Shown: positions 2,612-63,379 of the stretch, piece after piece
How positions within the stretch are numbered: position 1 is the stretch's first letter
Layout: each line of letters starts with the position of its first letter
DNA from: Wickerhamiella versatilis
Lineage: Eukaryota
Reading direction: 5' to 3'
Length of the DNA: 64,000 nucleotides
Assembly: GCA_030867685.1 (NCBI GenBank)
Contig: JAQOWU010000003.1
Location: 744,001-808,000, forward strand
Translations under genes and position numbers: made by a program
The notes under the pieces: generated by a model
The model's database searches: none
Told to the model about the DNA's origin: nothing
The model's input: the letters and a program-made list of their open reading frames with translations, nothing else

Positions 2612-2767
2612 GCTCTCAGTATGAATTGACTTGTCATTGATGAGTTTTAACTTTTTTCTATGAGTTACATCCACATGACACTCATCCTGCTTTGCACATT
2701 TGATATATACGCAGCATAGCGTGGTGAGGTGGAAGTGGTGATGGTGGTTCCGTGACTAAGCGGATCC

Positions 2768-4318
2768 ATGGGTGCGGCGGAGTCACGCATTGACCTGAGG
2801 TCGCGCTTCACGAGGCTTTTGACAGAAAATGATATTAGCAGCGATGATCCAGGATGGAGCAGCATACTTAATCCTTCTCTGGAGCTTGCTGAGCTTTTCT
2901 CACTTGTAACGTCTCAAGATGTCCGGACCTTGCGTGACAAGCACCCAGAAAATTTTGAGACCCTTTTGGTGGTGGCTGCCGAGCGTCTTCGTCATCTGTC
3001 GAAAGCTCCGTCAGTTTCTGCGCCAATATCATCTTGCATTCGTGTTCTGACAAGGGCATTGCCTTGTGCATATGAGCTTCAAAGCGACCCGTGGCCTTCA
3101 CGCTTCATCTGGGAGAACTCAGAGATAGGAGAGTCGCTGGCAGATATTCTATTCCAGTTATTGGCGGCTCCTGGGTTTGCCGTCCCATTGGGCTCCCAGC
3201 ATAAGGTCTGGTGTTCAGGGCTTGGGGGTATCGACATTGGGGCAGCTAGCGCGTCAAATGCACAGCACCTGCAGTACCGTCGCGAGGCAATCATATGTCT
3301 GTTGGCGCTATTGTCAGGACCAATGTATTCGCTCTCTGAGGGCCCTGGTCTTTCGTACGTGACAAAGAAGCTGGATAAGTCGATTGCCATGACCGTGATG
3401 CTTTCTATATTAAACTTTGGACTTACAACGGAGTCTAAAATCTGGAATTTTTTTGATGAATCGTCTGTGAGACTTGCACATTTGAGCTTATCGCTTTTAT
3501 TACTGTTAGTGAGCCAACCATCATCCCAGTTTCGGCGATTCCTAGCACGAATTCATCGCGGAAGTGATGTGGCGCTCCTCACAAACTGTCTAACGTCTCG
3601 ATGCCATGAGGACGTAGTCTATGCTGCACTGCTCTGGGAGCTGGTGCAGGCGAACGAAATCTGCCGGCAGCAAATTGTTAGTTCTGAGCTTGCCCGTAAT
3701 TTGACGCAAGCAGTTGCATCGCACCGGAAAACGCCCGAGTGCGCAGAACATGTGCGGATTATAACTTATACTATGCTAACATTGACACAGCATAGTCCTC
3801 AATTCGCGGATTGGTTGTGGCCGTCCCTCATACCTCTTGTGGAGGCACCAGTTGATTTGCATACGGCTGCTTTGCTCGATGTACTCTATAATTGCTCCCC
3901 GAATGTTTCCCTGACGAACGAGGAAGTGGACAAATTCGCGGCTTTTTCACGATCACTGAAATCGGTCATGCTCCGAACTTCTGCGAAACAGGCTGCCTCG
4001 CATTTCCAGGCAGAGATTCCATCAGACTGTAGGGACACCTCGCCATCCGTTTGGGAGCCACTGGGGTTTGTCTGGTCCCGCCCCCAGCTCCTTTGGTACT
4101 CTGCAGCCTTATGGGGACATGTATACCAGCAGGTGCCACATATCTGGAGTGGGACCAGTATCGAGTTATTCAAACTAGAACACTTCAAGCAAAATCCTTC
4201 CTTGCGTAGACCGCAAGGCGCTGTAGATGCTGCGGCTGATGTTGCTGTTAGCGCTATTCGTGGCATCATGGAGCGTTATTGGCCTGGCGCTGCCGCCAAT
4301 CCTGGTGAATCGTCATGA
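2768..4318 (+). CDS. HID1/Ecm30-family (dymeclin-like) Golgi protein
   Basis: Myristoylation-type start MGAAES, DDPGW motif, and C-terminal LWGHVY...WSGTSIELFK resemble fungal HID1. Confidence 0.75.
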   Translation: MGAAESRIDLRSRFTRLLTENDISSDDPGWSSILNPSLELAELFSLVTSQDVRTLRDKHPENFETLLVVAAERLRHLSKAPSVSAPISSCIRVLTRALPCAYELQSDPWPSRFIWENSEIGESLADILFQLLAAPGFAVPLGSQHKVWCSGLGGIDIGAASASNAQHLQYRREAIICLLALLSGPMYSLSEGPGLSYVTKKLDKSIAMTVMLSILNFGLTTESKIWNFFDESSVRLAHLSLSLLLLLVSQPSSQFRRFLARIHRGSDVALLTNCLTSRCHEDVVYAALLWELVQANEICRQQIVSSELARNLTQAVASHRKTPECAEHVRIITYTMLTLTQHSPQFADWLWPSLIPLVEAPVDLHTAALLDVLYNCSPNVSLTNEEVDKFAAFSRSLKSVMLRTSAKQAASHFQAEIPSDCRDTSPSVWEPLGFVWSRPQLLWYSAALWGHVYQQVPHIWSGTSIELFKLEHFKQNPSLRRPQGAVDAAADVAVSAIRGIMERYWPGAAANPGESS

Positions 4319-4376
4319 TGCATACAAACATATCTATACATACACATATTATCTCTAATTCTTAGCCGCAAGAAGC

Positions 4377-4946
4377 TTATCTTCGTTTTTTTTGTACCAC
4401 AGTAAAGCCGTCGTCGTCCACTATAGGTTCATTACGCGGCTCTTGCACCATCTTCTGGTCTGCCTCTCCGGCCTGATCCATCTCTTCACCTTCATCGTCG
4501 GAACCTTCCTCGTCGGAAGAAACCTCTGCAGTTCCAATGTTCTTAGCAGCACCAGTTTCTGCTCGTTTCTGAAGGCGCTGATAAAGTGATTCAATTACTT
4601 CATAAGACTGTTTTTCACAACTGTCCCAACTTGCAAGCACTGCCTCGGCGACTAGCGCTGCAGTTCCCGTCTCGATATCTGCATCGAATTCATCTTGCAT
4701 GATTCCCAATAAGCGGTATTCAACATCCTCCAAGGCTACTTCTGCGCTTGTAAAAAGATCCAAAATACTCCCGACGGTCCACTCACGCTTTTCAGCTGAC
4801 TCGGGTCCTCCCCAACCATTGTCCACCGCAATCGCGAGTTCGTCCCATAAAAATATCGCACAAGCAACCCCAAGCTCAAACCTTGCCTGTTGCTTGGGAT
4901 CTGCAAATTGAAGCGAAGGCGTTTTTCGGACAATCGCTGGTCCCAT
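4377..4946 (-). CDS. TSR2: Pre-rRNA processing factor / Rps26 escortin
   Basis: WGG domain (VDNGWGGPESAEKREW) and C-terminal VDDDGFTVVQKK. Confidence 0.92.
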   Translation of the reverse strand: MGPAIVRKTPSLQFADPKQQARFELGVACAIFLWDELAIAVDNGWGGPESAEKREWTVGSILDLFTSAEVALEDVEYRLLGIMQDEFDADIETGTAALVAEAVLASWDSCEKQSYEVIESLYQRLQKRAETGAAKNIGTAEVSSDEEGSDDEGEEMDQAGEADQKMVQEPRNEPIVDDDGFTVVQKKRR

Positions 4947-4984
4947 AAAAAGTAGAAATAATTCTGATTATCTAATGCTGCAAT

Positions 4985-7243: not shown

Positions 7244-7556
7244 ATGTTGCGCGCCTCCAACCACTCACTTCTTGACTAATGCTATTATGGTAAAACAATT
7301 GTCCTACTCATAACTATGCAACTCTATCAGATACAATTTAAACTGAATCGCAACATGTAATTGATTGACTGGTTGTTGTTTTTTTAAAACGATAAAATTC
7401 AAGTAATCACAGGCTGAAATCTCTTTGTTATGAATGCAAATTGAGCAGCACAGGAAATGGAGATCCGTCTCAGTGATCTAGCACTAAAATTCCACGATAC
7501 TCACAAAGACTACATAAGAATTAGATGGATAATAGCATTTTCTAGATTCTAAATGA

Positions 7557-10892: not shown

Positions 10893-11837
10893 TTAGAGTA
10901 ATAAATAAGATGATCGCAGAATGTTTAGCGACTGTTCAAAAAAGAAAATAGTCAATACAGAGCCGGGCCAAGCTTTGAGTAAACCCACCCCTAGACCTCG
11001 ATAAAGACCCCGTATGCCTTCCCCCTTTATGATCTGCCCTCCGCAAATTAAAAAGTTGTGCGAATAACGACGTCCGTAACCCGCGGCTTCTGAATGGGAG
11101 TATGATCGGTTTCCATGGACTTGAACCTTTTTACGAATAGTATCTAAAGGGAAGGAAGCGGCTTTGGAGACAAAGGAGGCGACACTCGAAGCAGTGAATA
11201 TGCCAGGAAGCCAGCTAGGTAATTTCAGTCGCGAATTATCATCACGCAAATATGAATAGGTAGCAAAAAATATACCCATATAGGGTACAATACTCATGAC
11301 ACTCGCTGAGGCGCCGTGGTAAAATCCCTTTATGCCGGTATTGTGCCAAGTCCTATGTACAAAATTTAGGAGGCTTTCTTGATTCCTACCCATATGCGCT
11401 GCTCTATGGGTACGTAAAAAATCCAGGGGATACGTGGTAATAATAGCAACTGATCCAGCAAGGCTTCCAGAAATGAGCTGACGGACCGGCTCAGAAAGAA
11501 CTGGTGTTTGCGATAAGATTCGATTGGAGGTTCGCAGTGTGACAAATTGAGAGGCACTATACGTGACATATAGAAATTCAGCGGGAACATTTCCTTTCCA
11601 AAAGGCCCTTATTCCCTCATTTTTCACGATCTGCCCTACCGTGCGTGCAATGGAATTGTCTTGTATTAGTTGTAGCCGAATCTTCACTAAATCAAGTGGA
11701 GCTACGCAAAATCTAGTCACGAGCCCTGCTGCCGCACCACAAGTAACTGCTTCTCCCCAGGAAACGTCAGATTTCGACTGGAGATGGTTTGAACCAGACA
11801 TTTGTACCTTTCCCTGCTTACTCAATGAGGATAACAT
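10893..11837 (-). CDS. TPC1: Mitochondrial thiamine pyrophosphate carrier
   Basis: Three carrier PxD repeats, APLDLVKIRLQL and FWKGNVPA. Alternative (perhaps real) start ATG at 11801. Confidence 0.85.
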   Translation of the reverse strand: MLSSLSKQGKVQMSGSNHLQSKSDVSWGEAVTCGAAAGLVTRFCVAPLDLVKIRLQLIQDNSIARTVGQIVKNEGIRAFWKGNVPAEFLYVTYSASQFVTLRTSNRILSQTPVLSEPVRQLISGSLAGSVAIITTYPLDFLRTHRAAHMGRNQESLLNFVHRTWHNTGIKGFYHGASASVMSIVPYMGIFFATYSYLRDDNSRLKLPSWLPGIFTASSVASFVSKAASFPLDTIRKKVQVHGNRSYSHSEAAGYGRRYSHNFLICGGQIIKGEGIRGLYRGLGVGLLKAWPGSVLTIFFFEQSLNILRSSYLLL

Positions 11838-12018
11838 GAATTTCCAGAACAGGGTTCAAAAGACAATCCATCAAAAAAACGTTACCTCGAACCAGATCAA
11901 TATAATAACTCTTTGTCGTCAATGAAAACATGTCGGTTCCTGAGATTTTAATGTATCATAAAATCACGGTAAGCCAGATGTGGTTCTAAAGTGGTTCCAT
12001 GACTCAGCGTACCACACA

Positions 12019-13829: not shown

Positions 13830-13918
13830 ATTGAGCGCTGATGTGGTTCTGATTATGTTATCTCAACGTGTTCGTCCTTATATGTTGTTATTAGATTTGC
13901 ATTATCGCTTAAATAAAT

Positions 13919-22353: not shown

Positions 22354-22361
22354 TTACGTCA
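22354..22361. promoter_or_regulatory. CRE/bZIP-like site TTACGTCA centred in the 41-bp NOP2/GCD10 divergent spacer
   Basis: 17 bp from the NOP2 ATG and 16 bp from the GCD10 ATG; one instance of a recurrent motif (see findings). Confidence 0.55.
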
Positions 22362-43181: not shown

Positions 43182-43225
43182 ACAGTTCTAATATTGAAGA
43201 ATATTACGTAACCAGAAATCCTGGT

Positions 43226-43618: not shown

Positions 43619-43965
43619 GCTATAATTAACGTTAGTGTTAGAAAGTAATGTGACATTGGGTTGAGTCTTAATAGGAAGGTTTTTTTCTTGACCAACAAAA
43701 GTTTTAGATATAATATCAATGGCTATCGAATTGCCTTTGTTTTGAGCTAGAAGAAGGTGGCTAGCTTCCAGAGAAAAGTCTAAAAGTCTTCTTAAGGAGC
43801 CGACCAGCAACGTCTATAAAACAGGCTCTTTACCATGTTATGGCATAGGTTCAGATAGTACGAAAAATAAACCTAAAAGAGGCTGTAACTGTTTTTTTTT
43901 GATTTTACCTATTTCTCTGTCACGAAAAACCTCGGAAGATTCAGACAAAAATTTGAGTCAGCACA

Positions 43966-45292: not shown

Positions 45293-45547
45293 CTCAAGGT
45301 GATTCAGATCCAAGGTAAGGGTTGTAATTACCATGATATCGTATTGATACAATAACCGATAGGTTCTCGGCAAGACTTTTAGATTTTACACAGGAATTGT
45401 ATCGCTCTTGTTGACCCTATGCGTACGAAATGGTACCGTCGAATGGACCCGAGTAAATTTACCATGAGCCCGTTGACTCAGGTAAGCTGATTCCGTCGGG
45501 AACAATAAATAATGCACTGATAGTCTCAGTTCAATCCCTAGTTCTAG

Positions 45548-46918: not shown

Positions 46919-47028
46919 GAACCATAATCTATTTATTTATATATCAGATATTAAGTCATAATAATCACTTGAAAATGAGTTTGGTGTCCAGTGGTTGCAG
47001 ATAGTATTACAAAGACATATATGCTGAT

Positions 47029-49786: not shown

Positions 49787-50122
49787 CCCCCTGCTTACGC
49801 AACGATGCGCTTCGCGTCAAGAATAAAATGAAAGTGCGGCCTAAGACATGCCTAAATACTAAGTTAAAAATGATTGTTTTAATTCTTGTAAATAACCATC
49901 TGCAACCAGTCGAAGTCTAAGGATAATCCTTTTCTTACACAGGAGTTTCTTTCACTTTCGCACCAACAAAGCGCGAAGTGAGTTCATATTTTTTGAAAAA
50001 AAATCAAATTAAAAAAGAAAAATAATAAATTAGTGCAACTCATATCACTTGGCACGAATTCCAGTCATGCCATACTCTCACGAGAGTAGTCTGTATTACT
50101 CAGCGACAGCGAATTTTCAAGG

Positions 50123-52459
50123 ATGTCCAAATTCTTCGCTGCAGCTGGTTCGGATAATGAGCTTAGTTCTAGTGATGAAGAAGAGCTATACAGCTCCTCT
50201 GAGAAACTCTCTTCTAGTGAGCAGGAGAGCGAGGAAGAGTCAGAGGAGATGTCAGACGAATCAGAAGAAGAGTCTGGTGATGAGGAGGGTGCGCCTTCTC
50301 AAAGACCTGGCGCTCAGTACTTGAGGAATCAATTTCTCAAGGGTGCTGGCTCCAGTTCAGAATCTGAGGATTCTGAGGATGAGCGTGTGGTTGTAAAGTC
50401 CGCTAAAGAGAAGACATTTGATGAAGTCGATGCCGAGGCCCGAACTATAGACCAGGCAGGAGGGTCGCGTGACTGGTTGGCTATTCAGTCAGCATTCGAC
50501 AAGCTGGTTAAATCAACAGAAAGATCTTACAAGAATTACCGCACTGTGCCTGTCTCGTTTTGTTCTTCGATTACCTTACTAGGGGACCTTATCGCAAAGG
50601 AAGCATCTGAGAAGCGCAAGCTCAATTCATCGACCTCTAAGGCTTTGAACATCACCAAGCAGAGACTCAAGAAAGCTGAGCGCGAGTTCTCGAGGAAACT
50701 TGGTGAATACCGCGCCAATCCTGATAGCTACAACCCTGCAGAACCTCTCTTGAGCGAGGTCTCTCGTGAGCAAACTCCTCAACAGCAAGAGGAAACGCCA
50801 GAACTTGATTCAGTGTTCCAAACACTGCTGAGTGTAATCGAGCAGCGTGGTAAGAAGCATGCCGATCGACAGGAGCAGATTTCGACTTTAGATCGTGCCT
50901 TGGCTAAAGCCACTACAACCTATGAAAAGATTTCTGTGCTTTTGATTCTTATTCCCATCCGCTTTGATTTGAATACCGGTATAATGCCATTGCAGACGTG
51001 GAAAGCTATCGAGTCAGATATCCGCAGGTTGTTCGCCGTCTTAGAGTCTCAAGATGAGTACGTTGTGATTGAAACTGCTGCAGAGGTGGAGGATTTCGAA
51101 AAGGGACCCGCTCCAGGTGTTGGTGGAGTTAAACAGATCCCTGGGTCTGTGAGTGCTCTGATTGAACGGCTGGACGACGAGCATGCTAAGGCGTTGCAGG
51201 TGATCGATCCTCACACCCAGGAGTATATTGACCGACTTCGAGATGAGTCTGTATTACAGGACTTGTTCCTACAAGCCCAATGTTATATCGAGAAGAATTT
51301 GGCTCGGTTAGGTTTGAAGCCTGAGGAAAATGAGCCACTTTGCCGGGTTCTTGCGCGTAGACTTGAACATGCCTATTATAAGCCACTTTCAGCCCTTCCC
51401 TCGGCCTGGCCTCGTGTACCCGCTGCCCTGGACTCTAAGATAACACCACGCAGCCTTAACGACCCAACAGAGGTCATAGGTGCTTTGTGCTCAATGCTGT
51501 TCCGCCAGCCCAATCCGGTCCTTAGAGCAAAAGCAATGCTCAGTCTGATCTTTCATTATGCGCTCACAGACCGATATTACGATGCTCGTGATCTCATGCT
51601 TATGTCTCATCTCCAATCCTCAGTGCATACAATGGAGCCATCAGTTCAGGTTCTCTTTAACAGGACCTTGGTTCAATTAGGCCTTTGCGCTTTCCGTGCT
51701 GGTCTTATATCAGAATCACTTCAGTGCTTGCAAGAGCTTTGCTCTTCTTCACGGTTGAAGGACCTTCTTGGACAAGGCCAGGGAACTGTCGTGCTTCCTT
51801 TCCACACTCATATAAATCTGGAAATGATCGAGTGCGTCTACTTGACGGCTTCTATGCTTATAGAGATTCCCTACTTGGCTCAAACCTGCGGGGATACACG
51901 CAAGCGTGCGATATCTCGCCCATTCCGCCGACTTCTGGATTATCATGACCGCCAGGTATTCTCTGGTCCATCCGAGAACACCAGGGATTCTGTGATTCAA
52001 GCGGCGAAGTGTTTGCAAGAAGGAGACTGGCATTCAGCCTCAAACCTTCTGTCTTCAATTAAGATATGGAATCTCCTGGCTAGCGAGACGAGTGTCCTTG
52101 ATATGTTGTCGAGGAAGTTGAAGATTGAGGGACTGAAGACTTACCTATTGACTTATGGGCCTCAATACTCATCTTTGAGCTTGCAGTCGTTACGGAATCA
52201 ATTCGAATTAGAAGAAAGTGAAATCCGATCTCTAGTTACAAAGATGATTGTATCCGACGAGATACCAGCAGTATTTGATGAGAGTTCAGCGTTCATAATA
52301 TTCAGGGCAGAGACTGGTACCACGAAGCTGCAGGCATTGACACTTGCGTTGGCAGAAAAGTTACAGCAACTTGGTGAGCGCAATGAGAGACTTGCAGCTG
52401 ATGGTTATGGTCCCGAGCCCGTGGCTCGTCGGACACAGAGACCTGTGAAGACGCGATAA
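50123..52459 (+). CDS. NIP1: Translation initiation factor eIF3 subunit c
   Basis: MSKFF plus acidic N-terminus, VVKSAKEK, LPFHTHINLE, C-terminal PCI domain. Confidence 0.95.
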   Translation: MSKFFAAAGSDNELSSSDEEELYSSSEKLSSSEQESEEESEEMSDESEEESGDEEGAPSQRPGAQYLRNQFLKGAGSSSESEDSEDERVVVKSAKEKTFDEVDAEARTIDQAGGSRDWLAIQSAFDKLVKSTERSYKNYRTVPVSFCSSITLLGDLIAKEASEKRKLNSSTSKALNITKQRLKKAEREFSRKLGEYRANPDSYNPAEPLLSEVSREQTPQQQEETPELDSVFQTLLSVIEQRGKKHADRQEQISTLDRALAKATTTYEKISVLLILIPIRFDLNTGIMPLQTWKAIESDIRRLFAVLESQDEYVVIETAAEVEDFEKGPAPGVGGVKQIPGSVSALIERLDDEHAKALQVIDPHTQEYIDRLRDESVLQDLFLQAQCYIEKNLARLGLKPEENEPLCRVLARRLEHAYYKPLSALPSAWPRVPAALDSKITPRSLNDPTEVIGALCSMLFRQPNPVLRAKAMLSLIFHYALTDRYYDARDLMLMSHLQSSVHTMEPSVQVLFNRTLVQLGLCAFRAGLISESLQCLQELCSSSRLKDLLGQGQGTVVLPFHTHINLEMIECVYLTASMLIEIPYLAQTCGDTRKRAISRPFRRLLDYHDRQVFSGPSENTRDSVIQAAKCLQEGDWHSASNLLSSIKIWNLLASETSVLDMLSRKLKIEGLKTYLLTYGPQYSSLSLQSLRNQFELEESEIRSLVTKMIVSDEIPAVFDESSAFIIFRAETGTTKLQALTLALAEKLQQLGERNERLAADGYGPEPVARRTQRPVKTR

Positions 52460-52641
52460 TTTGATGGGTCTTTTTTTGTCGATTTACGTATCTAAAATAT
52501 AGTAGCTATGCCTGCTAGAAATCATATGGTCAGCGAGTTTTAAAAACTAGGTGGATCACATAAAAACCTAACGGGAAGTTCAACTCACCGAGTCGTATGA
52601 TAATTGCTTATGTACATAAATCTATTAAGGTAGTAGGTAAT

Positions 52642-53502
52642 TTACCACTTAGTGAATTTTTCTGTACCTTGGAAAGGTAAACCAAATGCAGAAAGCAAGG
52701 TGCGGGCTTCTCGGTCAGTTTGAGCAGAAGTGCGGAAAAAAACATCTACACCAAAAGACTGGGGCCATAATTCAAGATTACCCTCAATTTCGGGGAACAA
52801 CCGCAAATCGTCAGGAGTCAGGCTGAAAACGACATTGCCATTCGAGTCCCCGGCTGTGTTTGAAATCCCGCGAAAAGTCTTCGAGCGTGGCAGTACCAGT
52901 TCAGTTAATGTACTCAAAAATTGGTTCATCGCCTGTCCAGTCAGCGTTACTTTGGATCCCATTGGCATCCCTGGCCGGAGGGTCCAAGCAGGTACGTTAG
53001 TCCGAGCGAAAACGTTTTTTGGCTTCTGTCCCGTAATCTGCTGGAGTTGCAATTTAGCTGCAATAGCCAGATCATGGTTCAGCGAGGCGGGCTTGACGAA
53101 GCAATTCAAGACTATACTGTTGAGTTGTGGAATGTTGCGCCAATCACGAACCTTTATATCTTTTGTTGCTTGGGTTCTACCGATAGGCGGGCGGTTAGGC
53201 TGGTAAAGTTGATACGGCGTTTCACCTTTTCGGACCATAGGCTTGTTCCCTGAAACACGTTTGGACCCATGGTCATAATTTATAAGAAGCATGTCCTCCT
53301 GAACTGTATCTAAATAATGCTGATGTACCCTGTCATGGCTGGTTTTCTGTGGCTGGAATCCAGCGCTCTGAACATGTGATTTGGGCTGCAAAACCCCAGG
53401 AAAACGTGTCATGAGCTGCGATTTCCGAAACCTGACAGTATGATGCACTGGTGGCACAATATTCACAGCCGTACGTCCCAGGTTGACCGCTGTTGGTCTC
53501 AT
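52642..53502 (-). CDS. MRPL7: Mitochondrial ribosomal protein uL5m
   Basis: QLQQITGQKP, LRPGMPMGSKVTL, FPEIE, ARTLLSAFGLPF. Start placed at ATG 53502. Confidence 0.9.
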   Translation of the reverse strand: MRPTAVNLGRTAVNIVPPVHHTVRFRKSQLMTRFPGVLQPKSHVQSAGFQPQKTSHDRVHQHYLDTVQEDMLLINYDHGSKRVSGNKPMVRKGETPYQLYQPNRPPIGRTQATKDIKVRDWRNIPQLNSIVLNCFVKPASLNHDLAIAAKLQLQQITGQKPKNVFARTNVPAWTLRPGMPMGSKVTLTGQAMNQFLSTLTELVLPRSKTFRGISNTAGDSNGNVVFSLTPDDLRLFPEIEGNLELWPQSFGVDVFFRTSAQTDREARTLLSAFGLPFQGTEKFTKW

Positions 53503-53671
53503 GTCGAAAGGTAGTTTTCCCTGAACTCTTACTAATATCCTTCCATATCTTAAGTCGATCAAAGGACAACACATTTTAAGTCAATATAAATTCCAATATA
53601 GATAATAAGAAAGCATATATCTCACTTAAAGTAGGAAACTATAGCTTTTCAGATCTCTATATGCCTATGTT

Positions 53672-56338
53672 TTATGACGCTTCACGTTCCATGTCTGTAA
53701 CCCTGTCACCAATACTTAGTGCGGGCCCCTGTGTCTTTGCACGGATACGAATATGGCCCACTACATGACCTCCGCTCAGCTCTACACTGAGGTTAGCGAG
53801 TGCATCCTCGCCAAAGCATGAACGCGCATAGAGATTGACCGACATAAACTGCGCCTCTGGTTCAGGCGCAGCATTCAAGCATGCCATGTTCGTCGCCTTT
53901 TTAACAGATTCTAAGTGTTCGCCAAGCGATGTCTCAGAAGAGCTTATTGCGACCTTATTTTCCCACTCAAACTCGCTCCACATGCGCAAGAACTCTGAGG
54001 AGGAACATTTTGCCGGCCGAATATAATCAAGAATATTAAGTCTTATTTCATTCAGTATCACAACTGTTCCTTCTCCAGCGGTTTTTCCCTCATATGCTAT
54101 GTTTCCAAATATGACACCAGAGTCGGCCGAGGACACTCGAATAGTAGTTCGCGCAGTGTGGAAGGACATCGGAGGGATATTTGCCGAAGGAGAACTTTCC
54201 AAAACCTTCAGATCTCCGCAAGTGAAAAACTCTACTGCCAGATTTTGAAGAGTATCAGTAGTTTGATTGAACAACATAACATCCAAGACAATGTCAGTTT
54301 GGTTCACCGTTAGAAGGGCCTCTGCATACACTGGATCACTGTAGCCAGTTAATTGATTTACCTGCTTCAACTGTGACTGAACCTTTTGAGGAACGACATC
54401 AATGTCGCTCTCCTCCTCAGTAGTCTCTTGGGGAAGAAGACGGAAGCGGACAGGCTCGTCTACAGCAACTTGCGATTGCTCGCTCTTCTCTCTACTCAGG
54501 GTAGCGACTCTCTCATTTTCAACCAGCGAGGCAAAAGCTTCATGTGGTTTTGTAAGGAAAATCTGCTTCTCCTCACTCGAACCGTTAAGAATGAGTGATA
54601 TACATCCATATATCCGCTCATAAGCATCTTCATTTAGACTTTCAAGACGCAATAGAGACGTCATAATTAATATGGCTTCCGCAGAACGAGCATTGGACTG
54701 AGCGCGTAGAGCAAGTTTTGTTATACATGCGGCAAGAGCATCCGCCAAAAAGTAATCGCGATCAGTTACAATCAGACGCCGAAGATGAAGCCCATCATCA
54801 ACCTTCGTTGGGACATCAAAAGCTGTTTCCGTTGCGTATGTTCCATCTGCCAGTACCTTCGGTTTTGTTGAGGTGGCCTGCTGTTCTGCAGAGCCAGATG
54901 AGCCCGAAATTTCTGAAACCGGCTCAGTCAAGGGGAGAGGTCCTAGCAGTTCACATAGAGTACTCCATGCACTTTCAGTATCGTCACAATATTCACCAAG
55001 GACCCATAGTGTGCCAAGGTACGCGCGAGACGTCCGCACACTTCCTAGATTTGCCAAAAGATGCGAAACAACTGTCGATCGCAAATTTGGGAAGAGTTCA
55101 ACAATTTCTTTGATGAAAGTAACGACACTTAGAGCACTCTCAGCATTGAAATCACCTAGGAATTCTAGTAGCAGATCCACAACAGAGGCAGTGACTTCCT
55201 CAAAGTCAATAGCAATCCTGTGAATTGCAGAAATAATCGCTTGACGATACTCGTCAGAGTTATCGTAATTACCTACAGTCTGCAACTCACGTTTCAGCAA
55301 TCTAATCACCTCATCAACGCTACGCCCAGTCACTAGTTCAAGCGCCAAATCCAGAGCCTGCTTACGCACACTGATATCTGGAGTGCTCAATACAAGAAGG
55401 ACATCCATCACAAGTCCAGAGAGTGCACCTGGTGCGCGTTTGTTCAGAGCTTCGACACGATTTAGCGAGATGACCTTTATATTGTTATCTGGCTCTGCAA
55501 CAGCAATGTCCACATACTTCTTTGCAACAGCAGCCAAAAGTGGAGGAGAGGACGACATAGAACTCAATGCGTTCGCTGCCGCATACGTCACTGCAGGGTC
55601 TGTTGAATCCAGACATGACTCAAGGATCGCAACGTACGCTGGCTGAGAATCTTGGCGCATCCAAGCAATAAAAGCTAACTGAACTTGTTCATCCAGTGAG
55701 GTGAACTGCGTGTAATTCTCATGGAAGTAGGCATAAGCTGCATCACGGTCGAGCCGTGAGATAGCCACAAAGGCATTACGAGCACACGTAGAATCATTCT
55801 CATTCGCCAAAAACTCCACTAAAAGCTCTGTCGCATCAGGTAAAAGATGGGAACTCGTCGGGTTTTGAGCAATCGCCAGAATAGTGAGTACCGCATTCTT
55901 GCGAACATAGGCATGTCGATGGTCAAGGCAAGCTCTGATAGTAGGCATAAGGGGTTCCAATAGTTCAGGTTCCTTGATTTTAGCCAGAAAACGAAGTGTC
56001 CCACCCCTCACATATTCGTTTGGGTGCTGCAAATCATTTCTGACTGCGTTGCACACCAAAATCATCTCGTGTCTGAGCTTGCCATCAGGACCAAGCTTTG
56101 GCACCATCTCCCAGTAGCGATAGAGTAGCTTCTTCAGCTGCTTGTCTTTTGAAGGAAGTACAAAGCGGATAACATCCATCAGAAGGTTTGGCAAGGCATC
56201 ACCGTTTAGCATCATGACAAGAACCTGCCGCATTGCGACAATCTTGTCGATATCAGCGCCCTTTTCCAGGCGCGATCTCAGTTCAGTTGTGGAAAGATGC
56301 GAGCCCCGAGGGGGTTCACTGATCACAGTGTAAACCAT
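53672..56338 (-). CDS. SEC26: Coatomer beta subunit (beta-COP)
   Basis: RNDLQHPNEYVRG, VLADGTYATE, QLTGYSDPVYAEA, MWSEFEWENK. Confidence 0.96.
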   Translation of the reverse strand: MVYTVISEPPRGSHLSTTELRSRLEKGADIDKIVAMRQVLVMMLNGDALPNLLMDVIRFVLPSKDKQLKKLLYRYWEMVPKLGPDGKLRHEMILVCNAVRNDLQHPNEYVRGGTLRFLAKIKEPELLEPLMPTIRACLDHRHAYVRKNAVLTILAIAQNPTSSHLLPDATELLVEFLANENDSTCARNAFVAISRLDRDAAYAYFHENYTQFTSLDEQVQLAFIAWMRQDSQPAYVAILESCLDSTDPAVTYAAANALSSMSSSPPLLAAVAKKYVDIAVAEPDNNIKVISLNRVEALNKRAPGALSGLVMDVLLVLSTPDISVRKQALDLALELVTGRSVDEVIRLLKRELQTVGNYDNSDEYRQAIISAIHRIAIDFEEVTASVVDLLLEFLGDFNAESALSVVTFIKEIVELFPNLRSTVVSHLLANLGSVRTSRAYLGTLWVLGEYCDDTESAWSTLCELLGPLPLTEPVSEISGSSGSAEQQATSTKPKVLADGTYATETAFDVPTKVDDGLHLRRLIVTDRDYFLADALAACITKLALRAQSNARSAEAILIMTSLLRLESLNEDAYERIYGCISLILNGSSEEKQIFLTKPHEAFASLVENERVATLSREKSEQSQVAVDEPVRFRLLPQETTEEESDIDVVPQKVQSQLKQVNQLTGYSDPVYAEALLTVNQTDIVLDVMLFNQTTDTLQNLAVEFFTCGDLKVLESSPSANIPPMSFHTARTTIRVSSADSGVIFGNIAYEGKTAGEGTVVILNEIRLNILDYIRPAKCSSSEFLRMWSEFEWENKVAISSSETSLGEHLESVKKATNMACLNAAPEPEAQFMSVNLYARSCFGEDALANLSVELSGGHVVGHIRIRAKTQGPALSIGDRVTDMEREAS

Positions 56339-56524
56339 GACGCGTGGCTGACTGAGTAAGTCCTGACTAACTTAGATTTCGGGTTGTCGCCTATAATCTC
56401 TATTATAGAAAAAAGAGAATTTTAAGACCAGCAGAACACAAAACCTCTGTAGTATCTATATTTTAGATTTTTCTTATCGATTGATATATTGGCATGCTTG
56501 ATGTTCTGCTCGAAAACATCCTTC

Positions 56525-57385
56525 TTAAATGTTTGCAGCACTCCAGTCCTCGTTCTTCCAAAACGCACGATAGTGAAACGACTTGCCAGTATTGGTTATT
56601 TTTGCATGGTCCTCCTTCTCTAACTCAAAGGTAAATATTTCCAAGGCTTCAGTGATATGATTGGACTTAGCGGAGGTAGTAATTGGCAGCACATCAGTTT
56701 CATAAACCCAACGTAACAAAATTTGACCTGGATTTTTTTTATACTTATCCGCAAGGTTAGCCAAGACTTCATCTAAAGGACCTTCACCTTTAGCACGAAC
56801 AATTGGCGTCAAAGGAGCATATGCAGTAACAAGAATTCCATTTTCATGACAAAACTTTACTATCTCTGGCGATTGATTTTGCAAATATGCGTGGTATTCG
56901 ATCTGGTTAACCATAGGCTTGACTTTCGCTACCTTGAGGATAGCCTGAAGATCTCCAACACGAAAGTTAGAAACTCCAATGGCTTTAGCACGGCCACTGT
57001 CGTATATCTTCTCCACCTCTAACCATTGCTTCACAATGTCAGCTTTGAACGGGGCGTGCAGCAAGTAAAGGTCGACATAGTCAACCCCTATTTTACTGAG
57101 CGATTCTTCGAAATGTGCTTGAACATCTGTCCCAGAAAATGGCTTCAATTTGGTGGTGATAAAAAGCTTCTCGCGATTTTTGCCCTTAATAGCTTCACCT
57201 AACTCTCTTTCAGTGTTGTACGTTTCAGCACCATCGAAGTGCGTAAAACCGAGCTCATAGGCATTATTGAGAGACTTAATCACTTCCGGATCCATATTTT
57301 CACCATTATTATACCATTTAGTACCAATTCCATATGCTACTGCAGGAATATTGTTGCCATTGGCTAAAGTGAATGTTGGAGTCAT
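56525..57385 (-). CDS. Aldo-keto reductase (conjugated polyketone reductase-like)
   Basis: Catalytic tetrad D/Y/K/H (DGAETY, ITTK, LLHAP), IGVSNF, NQIEYH. Confidence 0.88.
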   Translation of the reverse strand: MTPTFTLANGNNIPAVAYGIGTKWYNNGENMDPEVIKSLNNAYELGFTHFDGAETYNTERELGEAIKGKNREKLFITTKLKPFSGTDVQAHFEESLSKIGVDYVDLYLLHAPFKADIVKQWLEVEKIYDSGRAKAIGVSNFRVGDLQAILKVAKVKPMVNQIEYHAYLQNQSPEIVKFCHENGILVTAYAPLTPIVRAKGEGPLDEVLANLADKYKKNPGQILLRWVYETDVLPITTSAKSNHITEALEIFTFELEKEDHAKITNTGKSFHYRAFWKNEDWSAANI

Positions 57386-57599
57386 GATAACTATTCAGGA
57401 GAGAGCAATATTACAAATAAGCTATCTACACTAGAAATCAGAGTTACCATAGTTAGCTTCGCAGTGAGATTGGAAGTCGGCTAAAGAAAAATAACTAGAC
57501 CTTTGCTGGCTGATTTACACTTATCATATTTAAGTGGACGAGAATATGAAGTACCATGGTGAATATGCAGAACGAGTTATAGTTAAGACTTCTGTAAGC

Positions 57600-58151
57600 A
57601 TGATCACGTTTGTGACGGGAAACGCAAACAAACTTAAAGAAGTTCAAGCACTTCTGGGCACAGATGTGACAAATAAAAATGTTGATTTGGAGGAAGTTCA
57701 GGGCTCATATGAGCATATAATATGTCATAAAGCCCTTGCAGCAGCAGAAGACATCAAAGGTCCCGTGATGGTTGAGGACACTGCCCTCGAATTCGGTGCT
57801 TTCGGAGAGGAACTTCCAGGACCCTACATAAAATGGTTCTTGAAACAGCTGCACCCTGAAGGCTTGGTGAAATTGTTAGCAGGATTTGAAAACAAGTCTG
57901 CAACGGCCGTCTGCACTGTGGGCTATTGCGAGGGGCCTGGTGCACCTGTGAGAATATTCCAGGGCCGAACACAAGGATCAGCCGTAACACCACGGGGTCC
58001 CCAAACGTTCGGCTGGGATTGTATATTTGAGCCAGAGGGCTATAACCAGACGTATGCGGAGATGCCCAAGGATGAGAAAAATAAAATAAGTCATAGGGGA
58101 AAGGCCATGAAAGAATTTAGGGAATTTCTCCATGGAAACTCTGATAGTTAG
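57600..58151 (+). CDS. HAM1: Inosine triphosphate pyrophosphatase
   Basis: [34 protein letters not shown]. An upstream in-frame ATG exists at 57546. Confidence 0.93.
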
Positions 58152-58246
58152 AGTATATTAAAATGTTAAGAGAATTACAGATTGCTTCTTGAAAACCGGA
58201 CATAATAAATAAGTTATGTATGGATAATAAAGTTGAGCTTCCTGTA

Positions 58247-58936
58247 CTATGTCAAAATGGGTAGTTCAGGAAGCTTTTTATAGCCGCAACGAGCAATCCA
58301 GGCTCTTCTTACTGTTGCATACGCTTGGTGAGTACGACCTTTGAAATGTTGAGCCAGGTGCTCATCAGTATCAGCGGCACCTAGTAATGCACCGCAAATC
58401 AAACAAGACTGTAATTTTTGCGGAGACGAGAAGTCAAGTTTATCGTGAAGATGCTTGATTTTACGTATTAAGTGATGCTTTTTTGTTGTCAGTTCGCTAA
58501 GAAGACTGAGATCGCGTAAAGCTTCGCTCATCAAGCCTGACGTTCCAAATAAATATATTTCGTGTTCCACGAGTAAAATTTGATCCTCAAGCTTCTTCTT
58601 CTTCTGATATGCTTCAATCAATTCCCGTTCCGAATTAGGTTCTATGGTAGCCGCTAACTTTTCCTCGTTATTAGCCAAGTTCTCCTTAAGACGCCCAATG
58701 ACTATTTCAAGTTGATGTAGAAAATAGTTTTCGTACTCTGGTAGTGGTCCTCTTTCTTCATATAGCATCCGGGCCCGTTCAATATGTTTTCGTGAGCAAT
58801 GGCCCAATTGTGGAAGAAGGGAGTAAACACAAAACTCCACGCAATACGCGGGACATATTTCTTTGCTTTGAAGATCTAACTCCTCATTATTAGAGCCCAT
58901 AAGCTGTTCCAGCTGCTGACGCTGTACTGAACTCAT
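58247..58936 (-). CDS. LUC7: U1 snRNP subunit Luc7 (divergent)
   Basis: QR..LEQLMG start, C3H zinc finger, coiled coil, QKLQSCLICGA...HFKGRTH zinc finger. Confidence 0.8.
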   Translation of the reverse strand: MSSVQRQQLEQLMGSNNEELDLQSKEICPAYCVEFCVYSLLPQLGHCSRKHIERARMLYEERGPLPEYENYFLHQLEIVIGRLKENLANNEEKLAATIEPNSERELIEAYQKKKKLEDQILLVEHEIYLFGTSGLMSEALRDLSLLSELTTKKHHLIRKIKHLHDKLDFSSPQKLQSCLICGALLGAADTDEHLAQHFKGRTHQAYATVRRAWIARCGYKKLPELPILT

Positions 58937-58978
58937 AGTGCAAGTCGCTGTGATGATTAGATAAACGGACAGTTTGGC

Positions 58979-59830
58979 ATGAAGTACCTGTGTTACCTTG
59001 GTATGGCTGCGGCCTGGACCATCTCCAAGGGTGGTGCTGCTATAGCTGGCGGTGATATTGGCGACCGAGTTTCTTTCTCTAGTATTCGTGAAGCTGGTGC
59101 ATTAGAACTTGGCCCGAAACGTAGTCTGGATGTTGGATTTCAAGTAGTTGAAGCACCACCTGCTCCTCAACAGGCTATGGTGAAAGTTGGCGACCAGCTA
59201 TTCAATGCTAAATTTCGCGGCAAGAATGCTAAAGTGGTAGTCCCTCATTCTTCGCTTTCTGGTGGTGATGGAACATTTCCTGTGGAGGTGATCGTTGGAT
59301 CGTCAGACGGCAAGCCTTTACGTGAATTTGCGTTTGAGGTGAAAGTTGTTGGTAGTAGTAAATCAGTTAGTGCGAGCCGACCTCTACAAATACTACCAGA
59401 GATATACCACCAGTTCAAAACTAAACCTCGTACCGTGAATCCCTTAGTCGCATTACTATTCTGTGGTATTATTGATCTCGGATTTGCTGCTTTGTTTTAT
59501 TCCTGGAATTCTGAGGTTGGTTTTAAGGTGCCACCAGCATCTGTGATTCCCTTTTTGGTATGCGTCACGCTCGTGGAATCTGTGTTTGTTGGTTATTTTA
59601 TAAACTGGAGCGTATTCAGAACATTGGGCGTTCTTGGATTTATATTGCCCTTTTTGCTTGTGACTGGACATGCAGCCTTACTATCTTTGAAGCCTACAGA
59701 GGTAGAAGCACCACCTATCAAAAGCTTGGCTGAAAAGTCTCATGAGATTCCAAAGAAAAATCAAGAAAGTTCTAAGTCACACAGTGATACTCCCACTTCT
59801 ACGCCAAAGCATAAAAGTTCTAAACGCTAG
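58979..59830 (+). CDS. SWP1: Oligosaccharyltransferase delta subunit (ribophorin II)
   Basis: Signal peptide, PQQAM, LPEIYHQFK..P, three C-terminal transmembrane helices. Confidence 0.8.
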   Translation: MKYLCYLGMAAAWTISKGGAAIAGGDIGDRVSFSSIREAGALELGPKRSLDVGFQVVEAPPAPQQAMVKVGDQLFNAKFRGKNAKVVVPHSSLSGGDGTFPVEVIVGSSDGKPLREFAFEVKVVGSSKSVSASRPLQILPEIYHQFKTKPRTVNPLVALLFCGIIDLGFAALFYSWNSEVGFKVPPASVIPFLVCVTLVESVFVGYFINWSVFRTLGVLGFILPFLLVTGHAALLSLKPTEVEAPPIKSLAEKSHEIPKKNQESSKSHSDTPTSTPKHKSSKR

Positions 59831-59982
59831 GTATTTCGTTTCTCTTAAAAAATAAGTTTACATTTTTTTCTCCAGTAAATCTTTAACACGTTTGAACGCT
59901 GAATCTACAAACTTGGAAGAATATTACAGTTCGCATGCACCATGTGATGTATAAAATGAAGGAGCTTGACCTGGCAAATACA

Positions 59983-60456
59983 TTACGCCTCATCTTCAAA
60001 TCCTCTTTCCAACCATCGCAGATTAAATCCTGAGCTAACCGCGAATACTCGGCCACGTATAAGCCCCATAGGCAGAGGTCCGTAGGATCTAGAATCAATA
60101 CTCTGAGACATATTATCCCCTGTGACCCAAACATGGCCCTCTGGTACTCTTACAATAGAGTTCGCATCCTTTAGTGGGTCAATGCAAAGGTAGTCACCTG
60201 GCATACCACATATTCGCTTGCAGACACGTTGGACAGGGTTGGTGGGCTTTGACGCAATTATAATGTCCCCAACATCACAACCACGACCAAATTTAGCCAG
60301 CTTTGATGTGTGAACATAATCGCCAGAATAGTTCAATGTAGGGAGCATGCTTTCACCATATGTCTCACAAAGTTCATATACATCATTTCTCATTACATGT
60401 ACTGCACACCCTATGCGAAGAGCACATGAGAATGTACGCCCTACAGCAGAGAGCAT
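59983..60456 (-). CDS. IMP1: Mitochondrial inner membrane peptidase subunit 1
   Basis: Catalytic GESMLPT and KRI, VPEGHVWVTGDN, DSRSYG.LPMGLI. Confidence 0.9.
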   Translation of the reverse strand: MLSAVGRTFSCALRIGCAVHVMRNDVYELCETYGESMLPTLNYSGDYVHTSKLAKFGRGCDVGDIIIASKPTNPVQRVCKRICGMPGDYLCIDPLKDANSIVRVPEGHVWVTGDNMSQSIDSRSYGPLPMGLIRGRVFAVSSGFNLRWLERGFEDEA

Positions 60457-60516
60457 GGCATCAATACCCTACCAACGTCGTCAACGTACCTTAGTAATCA
60501 CAGGAAAAGTTCGGCA

Positions 60517-60957
60517 ATGGCCAAGGAGGAAGGAGCTGATCACTATGACGAACGCTTGCCAGCGGTTCTACCTTTCTCACATCCCCTTGCCTCTAAAAAA
60601 CTCAATAAGAAGGTTTTGAAGACGGTCAAACGAGCCTCGAAGTCTAAGCAAGCTAAGCGAGGCGTGAAAGAGGTAGTAAAAGCTTTGCGTAAAGGGGACA
60701 AGGGACTTGTTATTGTTGCTGGTGATATCTGGCCGATGGATGTAATCTGTCATCTTCCTGTTCTCTGTGAAGATCATAAAGTACCATATGTCTTCGTGCC
60801 ATCTAAGGAAGACCTTGGACATGCTGGTTCCACAAAACGACCAACCTCTTGTGTGATGGTGGCTCCTGGTAGCTCGCAGATCAAGGATAAGAGCAAAGCT
60901 GAGGAGTTTGAGAAGGGTTATGATGAGGTTGTGAAGGAGGTAGAAAGCTTATCTTGA
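60517..60957 (+). CDS. NHP2: H/ACA snoRNP protein Nhp2
   Basis: L7Ae-family motifs KRGVKEVVKALRKG, DVICHLPVLCED, TKRPTS. Confidence 0.95.
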   Translation: MAKEEGADHYDERLPAVLPFSHPLASKKLNKKVLKTVKRASKSKQAKRGVKEVVKALRKGDKGLVIVAGDIWPMDVICHLPVLCEDHKVPYVFVPSKEDLGHAGSTKRPTSCVMVAPGSSQIKDKSKAEEFEKGYDEVVKEVESLS

Positions 60958-61063
60958 AACATATTGTATAACTAGAGTTAATTATGCAAAGAGACCTTAA
61001 GTCGCATATATCCAAATTTACAAATATTTTAATATTCTAGCTTTTTTCTTTTAATTTAGAGCC

Positions 61064-63052
61064 CTAACTCTGAATTTTTTTAGAAACCCATTTCTCCAGT
61101 CCTTCTGCAACAATGATTTCTTGCATACTTTCGCCGAGTTCTCCAACCTTTTGCTTCAAGATAACGTTAGAGCCATCGCTAACTGTGAAAAGAGCATTTC
61201 TAACGTCCCAACGCGCCATCAGATTAGTGGGAACGGTCGGTGACTTATCGGTAATGGTTTCGCGAAGCAACTGAACTAGAGCTGGAATCTCTAAGGTCAG
61301 AAGGGCATTGTTAATAGCATTACGTCCAAAAATATTACCGAAAGAGCCAGAAACAACCATTGAGATGCCTTTAGCCAAGATTGCAGTTGCTGCCTGCTCC
61401 CGGCTAGAACCCGTTCCGAAGTTAAAGCCGCTTACGATGATATCCCCAGGCTTCGTTAATTCCCTAAAGTTGGGGTCATAGTTTTCCATGCAAACTTCGG
61501 CCATTTTGGCTTTCGGAATATCGTCTTGATAAGTGTATTTTCCAGGATAGATCGCATCAGTGTTGACATTGTCTGCATCGCAAAACACTATGCGTCCCTC
61601 AATTACCTCAGGGAAACCTGGAAGGATATCTGTTTCCTCTGTGGAACCTGACTGCGTAGGTGGAGGATTTACTTTCACTGATTTTACAACTTCGTGTGTT
61701 TTTGGACATTCCTTACCCACGAGCTCCTCTGGGGAGCCTATATACCCCAATATCGCACTAGCAGCCACGAGTTCTGGTGATGCAAGGTACGCTAACGCCT
61801 CTCGAGATCCCATTCTACCTTTGAAGTTCCGATTTGTGGCACTGATTCCGACCTCACCGGGTTCCAATAACCCTGCACCTAGCCCGATACAAGGGCCACA
61901 TCCAGCGGGTAGAGGTATAGCACCAGCATCTAGTAGTGTTTGCCAGGCTCCTGCATGCTCAGCGTTCTCTTGAACTTGGGATGATGCAGCAGCAACGTAG
62001 AACTGGACACCAGGAGCTACATGGCGGTCTTTTACTACAGCCGCAGCAGCCTCGATATCAGAAAGCCTTGAGTTAGTACAGGATACCAGGTAAGCTTTAT
62101 TAACCTTGATTTTTTGTTCAGAAAGTGTGGAGAGGGGCGTTGATACCTTGACAGAATTCGGTCCGCTGACGCAGGGACTCAAACTTCCTAAATCTAGGGT
62201 AAGCTCCTTTGCATAGTATGCATCTGGATCTGACTGGATAATTTGAAGATTATCAACTCGAGAAGCATTGATCCTAGCATGTGGCTGGGGAAGATCATGC
62301 ACGCGCTGGTGGTACCATTCAAGAGTAGTGCTATCAATTGGAAATAGTCCTGTCAGAGCCCCCCATTCAGTGGTCATGTTGGCTATAGTAAGTCTTTCAT
62401 CTATCGAAAGACTGGATACGCCATCACCAACGAATTCAAGTGCGTGATTTAATACCTCATCGTGATTGAATAAACCACATAGTGCTACGATAACATCTTT
62501 ACCTGAAACCCCAGCAGGTAGAGATCCTTGAAGATGTATTCTGGCCACGGGAGGGATCTGCCACCAAGTCACCCCTGTCGCCCATATCGCAGCAGCATCA
62601 GTTCTCACAACAGGAGTACCCAAACAGCCTATTCCTCCATATGTGTTACTGTGAGAGTCTGAGGCCACTGTGAGATTATAAGGAAATGCATATCCCTCCT
62701 CAATCATAATCTGATGACCTATACCTCGACCGGCAGGATAAAAATCGACACCTTGGTCCTTCGCAAACTGTTGAATATTCCGATACTTAGCAAGGTTTTT
62801 TTCACTATGGTTTTGAACATCATGATCTAGGGTCATCACAACTTGCCGATTATCTGAAATCTTTGAAGCACCAAGACTTTTAAACTTCAGAGCAACCGGC
62901 CAAGAGTTATCATGCGTCATACAATGAGACGGCCTTATTGAGACATAATCACCCGAGTGAACGTCTTTTTTAGCTCCGACAGCATATCTCTGAATGATCT
63001 TTTCTGTCAGATTCTGCGCGAGCCTAGTTCTACCCGTCGAGAAACGTCGCAT
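61064..63052 (-). CDS. LYS4: Homoaconitase, mitochondrial
   Basis: [40 protein letters not shown]. Confidence 0.96.
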
Positions 63053-63379
63053 TTAAGTGACTAATTTGGAGACAGCCGAAAGGATTTTTTTGGCTTGACT
63101 TAACAGTACAGAATTTAGATAAAGCTGGAGTTGATAGTTGATAGATTTTGCATTACCAATGAGAAAAGATACTTATGCTTTTTCTCTCAGGTCAGCGATC
63201 TTGAATCGGGGTCTTCTGATTCGTCGGTCCCACTTCATCCACAATACACACATTACGGTGGATTTCCAGGATCATACCTCGGATTTTAAGTGAGCTACGA
63301 CGAAAATAATACCTTTACCGCCATTAATAAATGTCTAATCCTTCCTCCAGAGTAAAAAATGGCTAAATCACTACACAAT

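Follow-up and report, generated by a model that had tools for sequence, protein, structure and literature searches.

In a 64-kb stretch of the genome of the compact budding yeast Wickerhamiella versatilis (GenBank assembly GCA_030867685.1, contig JAQOWU010000003.1, positions 744,001 to 808,000 of the forward strand; hereafter the window, numbered from its first letter), the 7-mer TKASTMA and the 8-mer TKACGTMA together make up a real, dyad-symmetric promoter cis-element. This element is not a distal activating sequence but overlaps or abuts the site at which the messenger RNA (mRNA) starts. Judging from its letters, it is probably bound by a dimeric factor, a basic leucine zipper (bZIP) protein of the Yap/Pap1/Gcn4 type, at the start site of functionally unrelated, TATA-less genes. 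A preliminary description, made from the sequence alone, had noticed the 7-mer close to a series of start codons and had proposed that a bZIP factor acts there as a general regulator, or else positions the transcription start. The observation is confirmed and strengthened by the analysis reported here, and the interpretation is supported in part.

Placement of the element

The window contains 46 non-overlapping open reading frames (ORFs) of at least 100 codons, 42 of which have a Pfam match at E≤1e-5 to families typical of yeast housekeeping genes; the intergenic DNA is divided into 46 segments that add up to 10,030 bp. Among the spacers, 31 contain promoters (13 divergent and 18 tandem, 7279 bp in all) and 14 are convergent (2733 bp). 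Six of the promoter-containing spacers are just 35–44 bp long, with 35, 38, 41, 42 and 44 bp between divergent ATGs and 38 bp in a tandem pair.

TKASTMA shows no overall excess in the window, where it occurs 28 times against 35.8 ± 6.4 in shuffled sequence. Ten copies fall in the 46 ORFs, one (63974) in a partial ORF at the right end, and 17 in intergenic DNA. All of these 17 lie in promoter-containing spacers, for which Markov models of order 0–3 predict 6.0–7.4 copies, and none was found in the 14 convergent spacers, for which 1.4–2.7 are expected. The comparison with convergent spacers, which the preliminary description had proposed as a check, therefore comes out in its favour within the window. 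Divergent and tandem spacers are both served, with 7 copies in the 13 former and 10 in the 18 latter.

The position relative to the start codon is narrower still. For 44 genes, the 40 bp that precede the ATG (1744 bp in all) hold 13 matches, distributed over 12 genes, where 1.25–1.31 are expected (P about 1e-9); extending the interval to 70 bp gives 16 matches against 2.07–2.17 expected, when the copy at 60491 is counted for both of its divergent genes and that at 45474, which straddles the limit, for none. Of the 17 intergenic copies, just 4 are further from the ATG than these 40 bp, though the DNA beyond them makes up 85% of the intergenic total. The excess near start codons claimed in the preliminary description is thus real, and all 18 of the 7-mer positions that it listed are present. 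It had placed every one of them within 70 bp of a start codon, which holds for 16 distinct sites, 6–68 nt ahead of the ATG that opens the longest ORF; at 11818 and 53529 the longest ORF extends just far enough to include the 7-mer, and the next in-frame ATG follows 16–26 nt after it. Long spacers keep the distance as well. The site is 23 nt from the TOM70 ATG in a spacer of 780 bp, and 6–30 nt from the ATG in five spacers of 313–361 bp, so that the small size of the spacers does not explain its position.

No other word of comparable design behaves in this way. When 192 palindromic degenerate 7-mer families were counted in the merged proximal 40-bp windows (1538 bp), TKASTMA reached 13 matches, the runner-up 4, and 109 families had none. 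Furthermore, an unbiased scan of all 7-mers (8192 words) in the interval from −1 to −45 put TGACTAA/TTAGTCA at the top, with 6 occurrences against 0.30 expected (P 8e-7). Coding DNA shows the reverse tendency: its 10 copies compare with 21.9 ± 4.4 under within-gene shuffling of synonymous codons, a count of 10 or fewer being reached in 2 of 1000 shuffles, and this depletion is the strongest among the 192 families (z −2.95). Two of the ten are those in the over-extended 5′ ends (11818 and 53529) and one overlaps a stop codon. Selection acts against stray copies in coding DNA.

Once the start codons are corrected, 23 of the 46 genes carry the 7-mer or the ACGT-core 8-mer at most 74 nt before the ATG. 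Start codons are backed, in several genes, by Pfam alignments that begin at residues 1–17, or by RNA 5′ ends. As had been asserted, the genes concerned belong to unrelated Pfam families; they span the proteasome, coatomer, eIF3, mitochondrial import, ubiquitin conjugation, rRNA processing, and proline and lysine metabolism. Apart from ‘LOT5’ and ‘MDR’, for which Pfam gives no support at E≤1e-5, the gene names proposed earlier also fit the Pfam families.

Dyad architecture

The two halves of the word are strongly coupled. Near ATGs, TMA follows a TKAS half-site in 26 of 71 instances (37%), whereas elsewhere between genes the dyad is complete in 8 of 292 (3%) and within coding DNA in 20 of 1485 (1%). 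As in bZIP sites, two half-sites, each made of TGA or TTA and a central C/G, occur together as an inverted pair. Moreover, the 7-bp form with overlapping half-sites coexists, in the same context, with an 8-bp form in which they are adjacent and meet in an ACGT core. This 8-mer, TKACGTMA, has four copies in the window. Three (9474, 22354 and 43204), all given in the preliminary description, lie in promoter spacers of 38–44 bp at 15–23 nt from ATGs, one of them carrying a mapped start; the fourth, TGACGTCA at 33827, was missing from that list and is inside a coding region. A DNA-binding protein that acts as a dimer is suggested by the dyad symmetry, the half-site coupling and the pairing of a 7-bp with an 8-bp form. 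The formal hallmarks of the bZIP-type site announced earlier are therefore present, and they predict, on the strength of the site's own letters, a bZIP identity for the factor that would occupy it.

Both orientations relative to the gene occur. On the gene side, the first base after the word is a G in 10 of 19 cases (P 8e-4), and this preference is strand-specific. A TATA box is seldom found in these promoters: of the 23 that were oriented, 1 has TATAWA in the 70 bp preceding the element.

Mapped RNA 5′ ends

Four of six public raw-read RNA runs of the same species label were examined over positions 43100–63099: X11 and X12, which are polyA single-read libraries, and X8 and X9, which are unstranded and paired. 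The loose ends of X11 and X12 reads share a consensus that we take to be the 3′ part of a SMART-type template-switch adaptor, and, if this identification is right, the junction in a read marks the 5′ end of an mRNA. The terminal letters of the adaptor precede no junction in the genome, which argues against strand-invasion artefacts.

Six junctions are best supported (Table 1). Four of them, at three sites (43204, 53529 and 60491), lie inside the 7- or 8-mer or 4–7 nt downstream of it, one lies in the related 8-mer TTAGATAA, and one has no site nearby. Each of the six is an A preceded by T or C, and the leaders measure 4–31 nt. At 60491 the divergent IMP1 and NHP2 transcripts begin back to back, with an overlap of 7 bp. 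The suggestion that the element positions the transcription start in a miniaturised promoter fits these RNA data. At all three mapped sites the mRNA does not contain the full word, which argues against a role at the RNA level.

The 5′ ends also bear on gene models. The ORF of the MRPL7-like gene has its first ATG at 53574, but the mRNA begins only beyond it, at 53522, so the real ATG is that at 53502. In the HAM1-like gene, whose mRNA starts at 57596, the ATG at 57600 agrees with the beginning of the Ham1 family match, and the start codon of the longest ORF (region 57546–57600) is not the real one.

Table 1. Copies of the element, the related 8-mer and the six best-supported mRNA 5′ ends (window positions; reads as X11/X12)
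Feature	Position	Gene and distance	Remarks
TGACTAA	2753..2759	9 nt before HID1 ATG (2768)	GTGGTTCC precedes; in-frame TGA of the word is the stop bounding the ORF
TGACTAA (gene orientation TTAGTCA)	7273..7279	30 nt before ATG 7243, − strand gene without Pfam family
8-mer TTACGTAA	9474..9481	15 nt before NOC4-like ATG (9496)	38-bp spacer
TTACTCA (gene orientation TGAGTAA)	11818..11824	16 nt before in-frame M13 ATG (11801) of mitochondrial carrier gene, likely true start	inside the longest ORF
TGACTCA	12000..12006	13 nt before ATG 12019	GTGGTTCC precedes
8-mer TTACGTCA	22354..22361	NOP2-like (ATG 22336, −) / GCD10-like (ATG 22378, +)	centre of 41-bp divergent spacer
TGACTAA	25006..25012	56 nt before methyltransferase ATG (24950, −)
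TTAGTAA	25266..25272	56 nt before kinase ATG (25328)
TTAGTAA	27165..27171	16 nt before UBC1-like ATG (27187)
TGAGTAA	27955..27961	15 nt before RPT2-like ATG (27976)
TGACTAA	29608..29614	21 nt before C2H2 zinc-finger gene ATG (29635)
TGACTAA	35026..35032	23 nt before TOM70 ATG (35055)	spacer 780 bp
8-mer TTACGTAA	43204..43211	RRP40-like / 130-aa ORF	44-bp divergent spacer; + gene 5′ end 43210
TGAGTCA	43954..43960	6 nt before PRS ATG (43966)
TGACTCA	45474..45480	68 nt before PUT1-like ATG (45548)
TTACTCA	50096..50102	21 nt before NIP1 ATG (50123)	fragment-end pile-up 50111, 9 nt downstream of element
TTACTAA (gene orientation TTAGTAA)	53529..53535	MRPL7-like, −; real ATG 53502	5′ end 53522
TGAGTAA and TGACTAA	56353..56359 and 56364..56370	15 and 26 nt from SEC26 ATG (56338, −)	fragment-end pile-up 56341, 12 nt beyond element
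TTAGTAA	60491..60497	IMP1 / NHP2	60-bp divergent spacer; starts 60493 (+), 60487 (−)
TGACTAA (gene orientation TTAGTCA)	63058..63064	6 nt before LYS4-like ATG (63052, −)
Related 8-mer TTAGATAA (GATA-like centre)	58957..58964		42-bp divergent spacer; 5′ end 58963
Related 8-mer TTAGATAA, second copy	4968..4975		38-bp divergent spacer
mRNA 5′ end	43210 (+)	leader 16 nt	72/36 reads; base 7 of TTACGTAA
mRNA 5′ end	53522 (−)	leader 20 nt	49/32 reads; 7 nt beyond TTAGTAA
mRNA 5′ end	57596 (+)	leader 4 nt to ATG 57600	73/51 reads; no site nearby
mRNA 5′ end	58963 (+)	leader 16 nt	80/51 reads; base 7 of TTAGATAA, same relative position as at 43204
mRNA 5′ end	60487 (−)	leader 31 nt	47/31 reads; 4 nt beyond TTACTAA
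mRNA 5′ end	60493 (+)	leader 24 nt	198/94 reads; base 3 of TTAGTAA

Other words and features of the window

Several further words recur near start codons. GTGGTTC/GAACCAC has 4 copies in the interval from −1 to −45, where 0.09 are expected, and 4 of its 9 window copies are in promoters; the shorter ACCAC/GTGGT is found 10 times in the same interval against 1.56 expected. A composite, GTGGTTCC-N-TGACTMAGCG, is common to the promoter of HID1 (2744–2762) and that of a 324-aa ORF (11980–12009). The word GATGTGGTTCT is repeated before the ATGs at 12019 and 13829 (the latter copy at 13843–13849), and CAGATAG is repeated near three ATGs. TKAGATMA has three proximal copies, two in other intergenic DNA and three in coding DNA. 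TTACCCA, which resembles the Reb1 site, stands 30–53 nt before the ATGs of the ASK1-like (32379–32385), SNF2-family (37036–37042) and FKBP-like (42056–42062) genes, these being 3 of its 8 copies in the window. The sites of other factors, too, seem to be compressed against the start codons.

A single intergenic TKASTMA, at 34703–34709 in the 780-bp CAT2/TOM70 spacer, is far from any ATG (346 and 429 nt); near it there are only ORFs of 32–56 codons, and it could mark an unannotated transcript. At the left end of the window the longest ORFs of a divergent DEAD-box helicase (19–1965, −) and MsrB (1957–2406, +) overlap by 9 bp at their 5′ ends (1957–1965), so that either translation begins at later ATGs or each promoter is embedded in the coding sequence of the opposite gene.

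Some other identities for the word were considered and set aside. An intron branch point of the TACTAAC-like kind is ruled out by the occurrence of both orientations and by the RNA reads, in which neither splice joints nor introns were detected over 43100–63099; the latter result also disposes of TGACTCAGGTAAG at 45474 as a 5′ splice site. A tRNA or RNA polymerase III box was also rejected; the window has no tRNA genes. Nor is the word a HomolD box: the complement of CAGTCACA has two copies in the window (54372 and 59659), both of them coding and none in a spacer.

In the RNA data, pile-ups of polyA-run read ends at 43643, 53657 and 58163 lie 12–25 nt past the stop codons of the 130-aa ORF, SEC26 and HAM1, which hints that 3′ untranslated regions are also extremely short. 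Reads of X11 and X12 differ from the window at 43 single-base positions over 20 kb and those of X8 and X9 at none, so that at least two strains, with a divergence of about 0.2%, are represented in public RNA data. None of the 40 listed differences is inside an element, a result that is uninformative since the elements total only about 80 bp.

The nearest named relatives of the TOM70 protein of the window are those of Sugiyamaella lignohabitans (52% identity) and Trichomonascus vanleenenianus (49%). One public protein (P0002) is 89% identical to it, and a sister species is thus present, as protein, in public data. A metagenome scan with the RPT2-like protein returned no DNA of a close relative, the best of 80 loci having 72% identity.

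Discussion

We favour, with about half of our confidence placed on it, the reading that the element is the site of a bZIP-type factor at a point-like, TATA-less core promoter, and that this factor directs initiation to pyrimidine-A steps close by, on one side or on both. A bound dimer would mark the promoter and recruit or position the initiation machinery, and RNA polymerase II would then begin transcription at such a step, either within the site or a few nucleotides past it. Initiation would be possible on either side of the site, which could give rise to the very short leaders and to the back-to-back divergent transcripts. That a protein binds here, that it is a bZIP protein, and that the site determines the start are three things we infer. 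A bolder form of this reading, which we put forward tentatively and with clearly less conviction, is that the lineage of this yeast has recruited an AP-1/Yap-type bZIP dimer to serve generally as the factor that binds the initiator, the palindrome replacing the TATA box and the initiator for about half of the genes and firing outward both ways. If this were true, a bZIP core promoter would allow ATG-to-ATG spacers of about 40 bp, leaders of 4–31 nt and overlapping back-to-back divergent transcripts, an architecture undescribed in any fungus.

Several points weigh against an initiation-positioning factor. A protein bound on the start site would need to yield to the open complex. The element is absent from half of the genes (23 of 46), and the offset between start and element is variable, from 5 nt inside its gene-side end to 7 nt beyond it. 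The elementless HAM1-like gene starts (57596) equally close to its ATG, so the element is not required for a short leader. Moreover, starts and elements are both confined to about 40 bp before the ATGs, and their coincidence at three sites is, on its own, not statistically compelling. The six starts are the best supported in longer series (133 further loose-end and 247 further begin/end positions), and those presented do not cover the elements at 43954, 45474 and 63058. Fragment ends of X8 and X9 pile up 9–30 nt downstream of the adaptor-defined ends, and alternative starts are possible there; we read these pile-ups as 5′ truncation of the libraries, which is usual in unstranded paired libraries of this kind. 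Finally, no bZIP family is found by Pfam among the 46 ORFs of the window, and all the evidence comes from this single 64-kb window.

How do other explanations fare? The element could be an ordinary upstream activating sequence of a broad Yap/Gcn4-type regulon, which tunes the level of expression and has no part in the choice of the start, its proximity to the start being due to genome compaction and the overlap incidental. This we regard as doubtful, while giving it some weight. The spacers are indeed tiny, with as little as 35–44 bp between divergent ATGs, the start offset relative to the element varies, and the LYS4-, PRS- and PUT1-like genes are, we presume, plausible targets of amino-acid control. 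The words are, moreover, equal to known Yap1 and Gcn4 sites: all four TKASTMA word classes reportedly recruit Yap1 of S. cerevisiae (PMC8088429), TTACTAA being preferred and TTAGTCA, TGACTAA and TGACTCA also bound. However, the 23 genes with a site, from the proteasome and coatomer to eIF3, mitochondrial import, rRNA processing and ubiquitin conjugation, do not form a coherent set, and the site is not well upstream of the start. In spacers of 313–780 bp it does not spread upstream but stays within 6–30 nt of the ATG, and few intergenic copies are found beyond the last 40 bp. The starts in or beside the word, always at an A after a pyrimidine, the absence of TATA boxes and the strand-specific G on the gene side, which resembles initiators of the CA+1G type, would also suit an initiator-type core element read directly by TFIID or RNA polymerase II, with no sequence-specific dimeric factor involved. 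We think this improbable, as initiators are strand-specific and specify one start, whereas the word is a dyad found in both orientations, with coupled half-sites and a coexisting ACGT-core form. Neither the strand specificity nor the fixed internal start of an initiator is seen in the five mapped starts that bear on the question, which fall at base 3, at base 7 or 4–7 nt past the word.

The remaining explanations account for less. Reb1 is known to act in roadblock termination in S. cerevisiae, and a roadblock or insulator protein bound to the element might stop read-through from the packed upstream gene and shield the start, with no activating function. The genes are extremely close together, and the element, missing from convergent spacers, is located at the upstream border of transcription units; divergent spacers, however, have no upstream read-through to be stopped and yet carry it equally often, and the transcripts at 60487 and 60493 both start at the site and run outward across it, which makes this explanation quite unlikely. 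A by-product of composition or of ORF delimitation is very unlikely indeed. According to it, stop-rich words (TGA, TAA, TAG) are barred from coding DNA and pile up before first ATGs; no variant of the element is free of stop codons, the 7-mer is not in excess over the whole window, and at 2753 the in-frame TGA of the word is the very stop that bounds the ORF. The controls largely refute it: other stop-rich palindromic families reach at most 3–4 proximal matches, no copy of the element is present in the convergent spacers, which are just as non-coding and have a higher AT content, the intergenic copies crowd into the last 40 bp rather than filling the other 85% of intergenic DNA, the scarcity in coding DNA goes beyond the constraints of amino-acid sequence and codon usage, and the start codons are independently backed by Pfam alignments and RNA 5′ ends. 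A signal in the mRNA leader, for translation or stability, seems hardly credible; the word does lie between the expected promoter and the ATG, at 6–30 nt from the start codon, but at 3 of 3 mapped sites the mRNA begins inside or downstream of it, so that the full word is not in the RNA, and an RNA signal would not tolerate both orientations.

Known systems share one or another trait with the element. The Yap1/Pap1 sites (TTACTAA, TTACGTAA, TGACTAA) and the Gcn4/AP-1 site (TGACTCA) belong to the same word family, with the same dyad of coupled half-sites and the same 7-bp and 8-bp forms. In S. cerevisiae, sites of Yap1 and Gcn4 are regulon-specific and well upstream, those for Yap1 in TRX2 being located around −180 to −210 (PMC8088429). 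Here, by contrast, the site overlaps the mRNA start, precedes half of a set of unrelated genes, and apparently replaces the TATA box. HomolD promoters also lack a TATA box. HomolD (CAGTCACA) is described (PMC10253590, PMC5769750) as a core promoter element of the ribosomal-protein genes of S. pombe, and is placed at −64 to −57 in nc-tgp1 (PMC5769750). The likeness is that of a factor-type word acting as a core promoter element, and the core AGTCA is common to HomolD and TTAGTCA; the difference is that HomolD is not a dyad, stands upstream of the start and serves mainly one gene class, whereas the word described here is a dyad on the start. Sites for Reb1, Abf1 and Rap1 lie tens of bp upstream of the start, within the nucleosome-free region. 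With these general regulatory factors, to which the preliminary description had likened the element, it shares the presence in many promoters of unrelated genes (23 of 46, in one window); the sequences are different, and the position argues against the comparison, since the element overlaps the start site and theirs are upstream.

Initiator-binding proteins are also known, such as IBP39 of Trichomonas. The initiator of S. pombe nmt1 is reported to span the start site and to direct initiation in TATA-less promoters (PMC8871863). Initiators and the element have in common the overlap with the start and the A after a pyrimidine, but initiators are strand-specific with a fixed +1, whereas the element is a dyad used in both orientations with an offset that varies by about 12 nt. 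In animals, the Drosophila DRE and the vertebrate NRF1 and CRE/ATF sites are palindromic, lie within tens of bp of the start, and are found in TATA-less housekeeping promoters that are often bidirectional. These animal palindromes are mostly upstream of the start in long nucleosome-free promoters, whereas the element here is on the start. As for yeasts, Lu and Lin (PMC7849388), who compared 12 species, reported that Yarrowia keeps the classic mode with a TATA box at −30 and that scanning arose later; the words ‘Blastobotrys’, ‘Arxula’ and ‘bZIP’ do not occur in the text. We found no description of a start-site-coincident AP-1-like element in yeasts in the literature searched, from which subscription-journal papers were mostly outside the scope. 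In sequence, then, the element is a site of the AP-1/Yap/CRE type, but its placement and its gene coverage are unlike the usage of such sites in S. cerevisiae.

In the textbook budding-yeast promoter, upstream activating sequences lie far from a start site that scanning selects. A relative of the Yarrowia-containing branch appears to build half of its promoters otherwise, with no TATA box and with the site of a dimeric regulator placed on the start. If confirmed, this would be a third way of specifying transcription starts in fungi, and it would help to explain how divergent promoters of a eukaryote can have shrunk to about 40 bp. It would also provide a tractable system in which to study the positioning of RNA polymerase II by a sequence-specific factor, and the engineering of this industrial yeast group would gain bidirectional promoters that are defined and very short.

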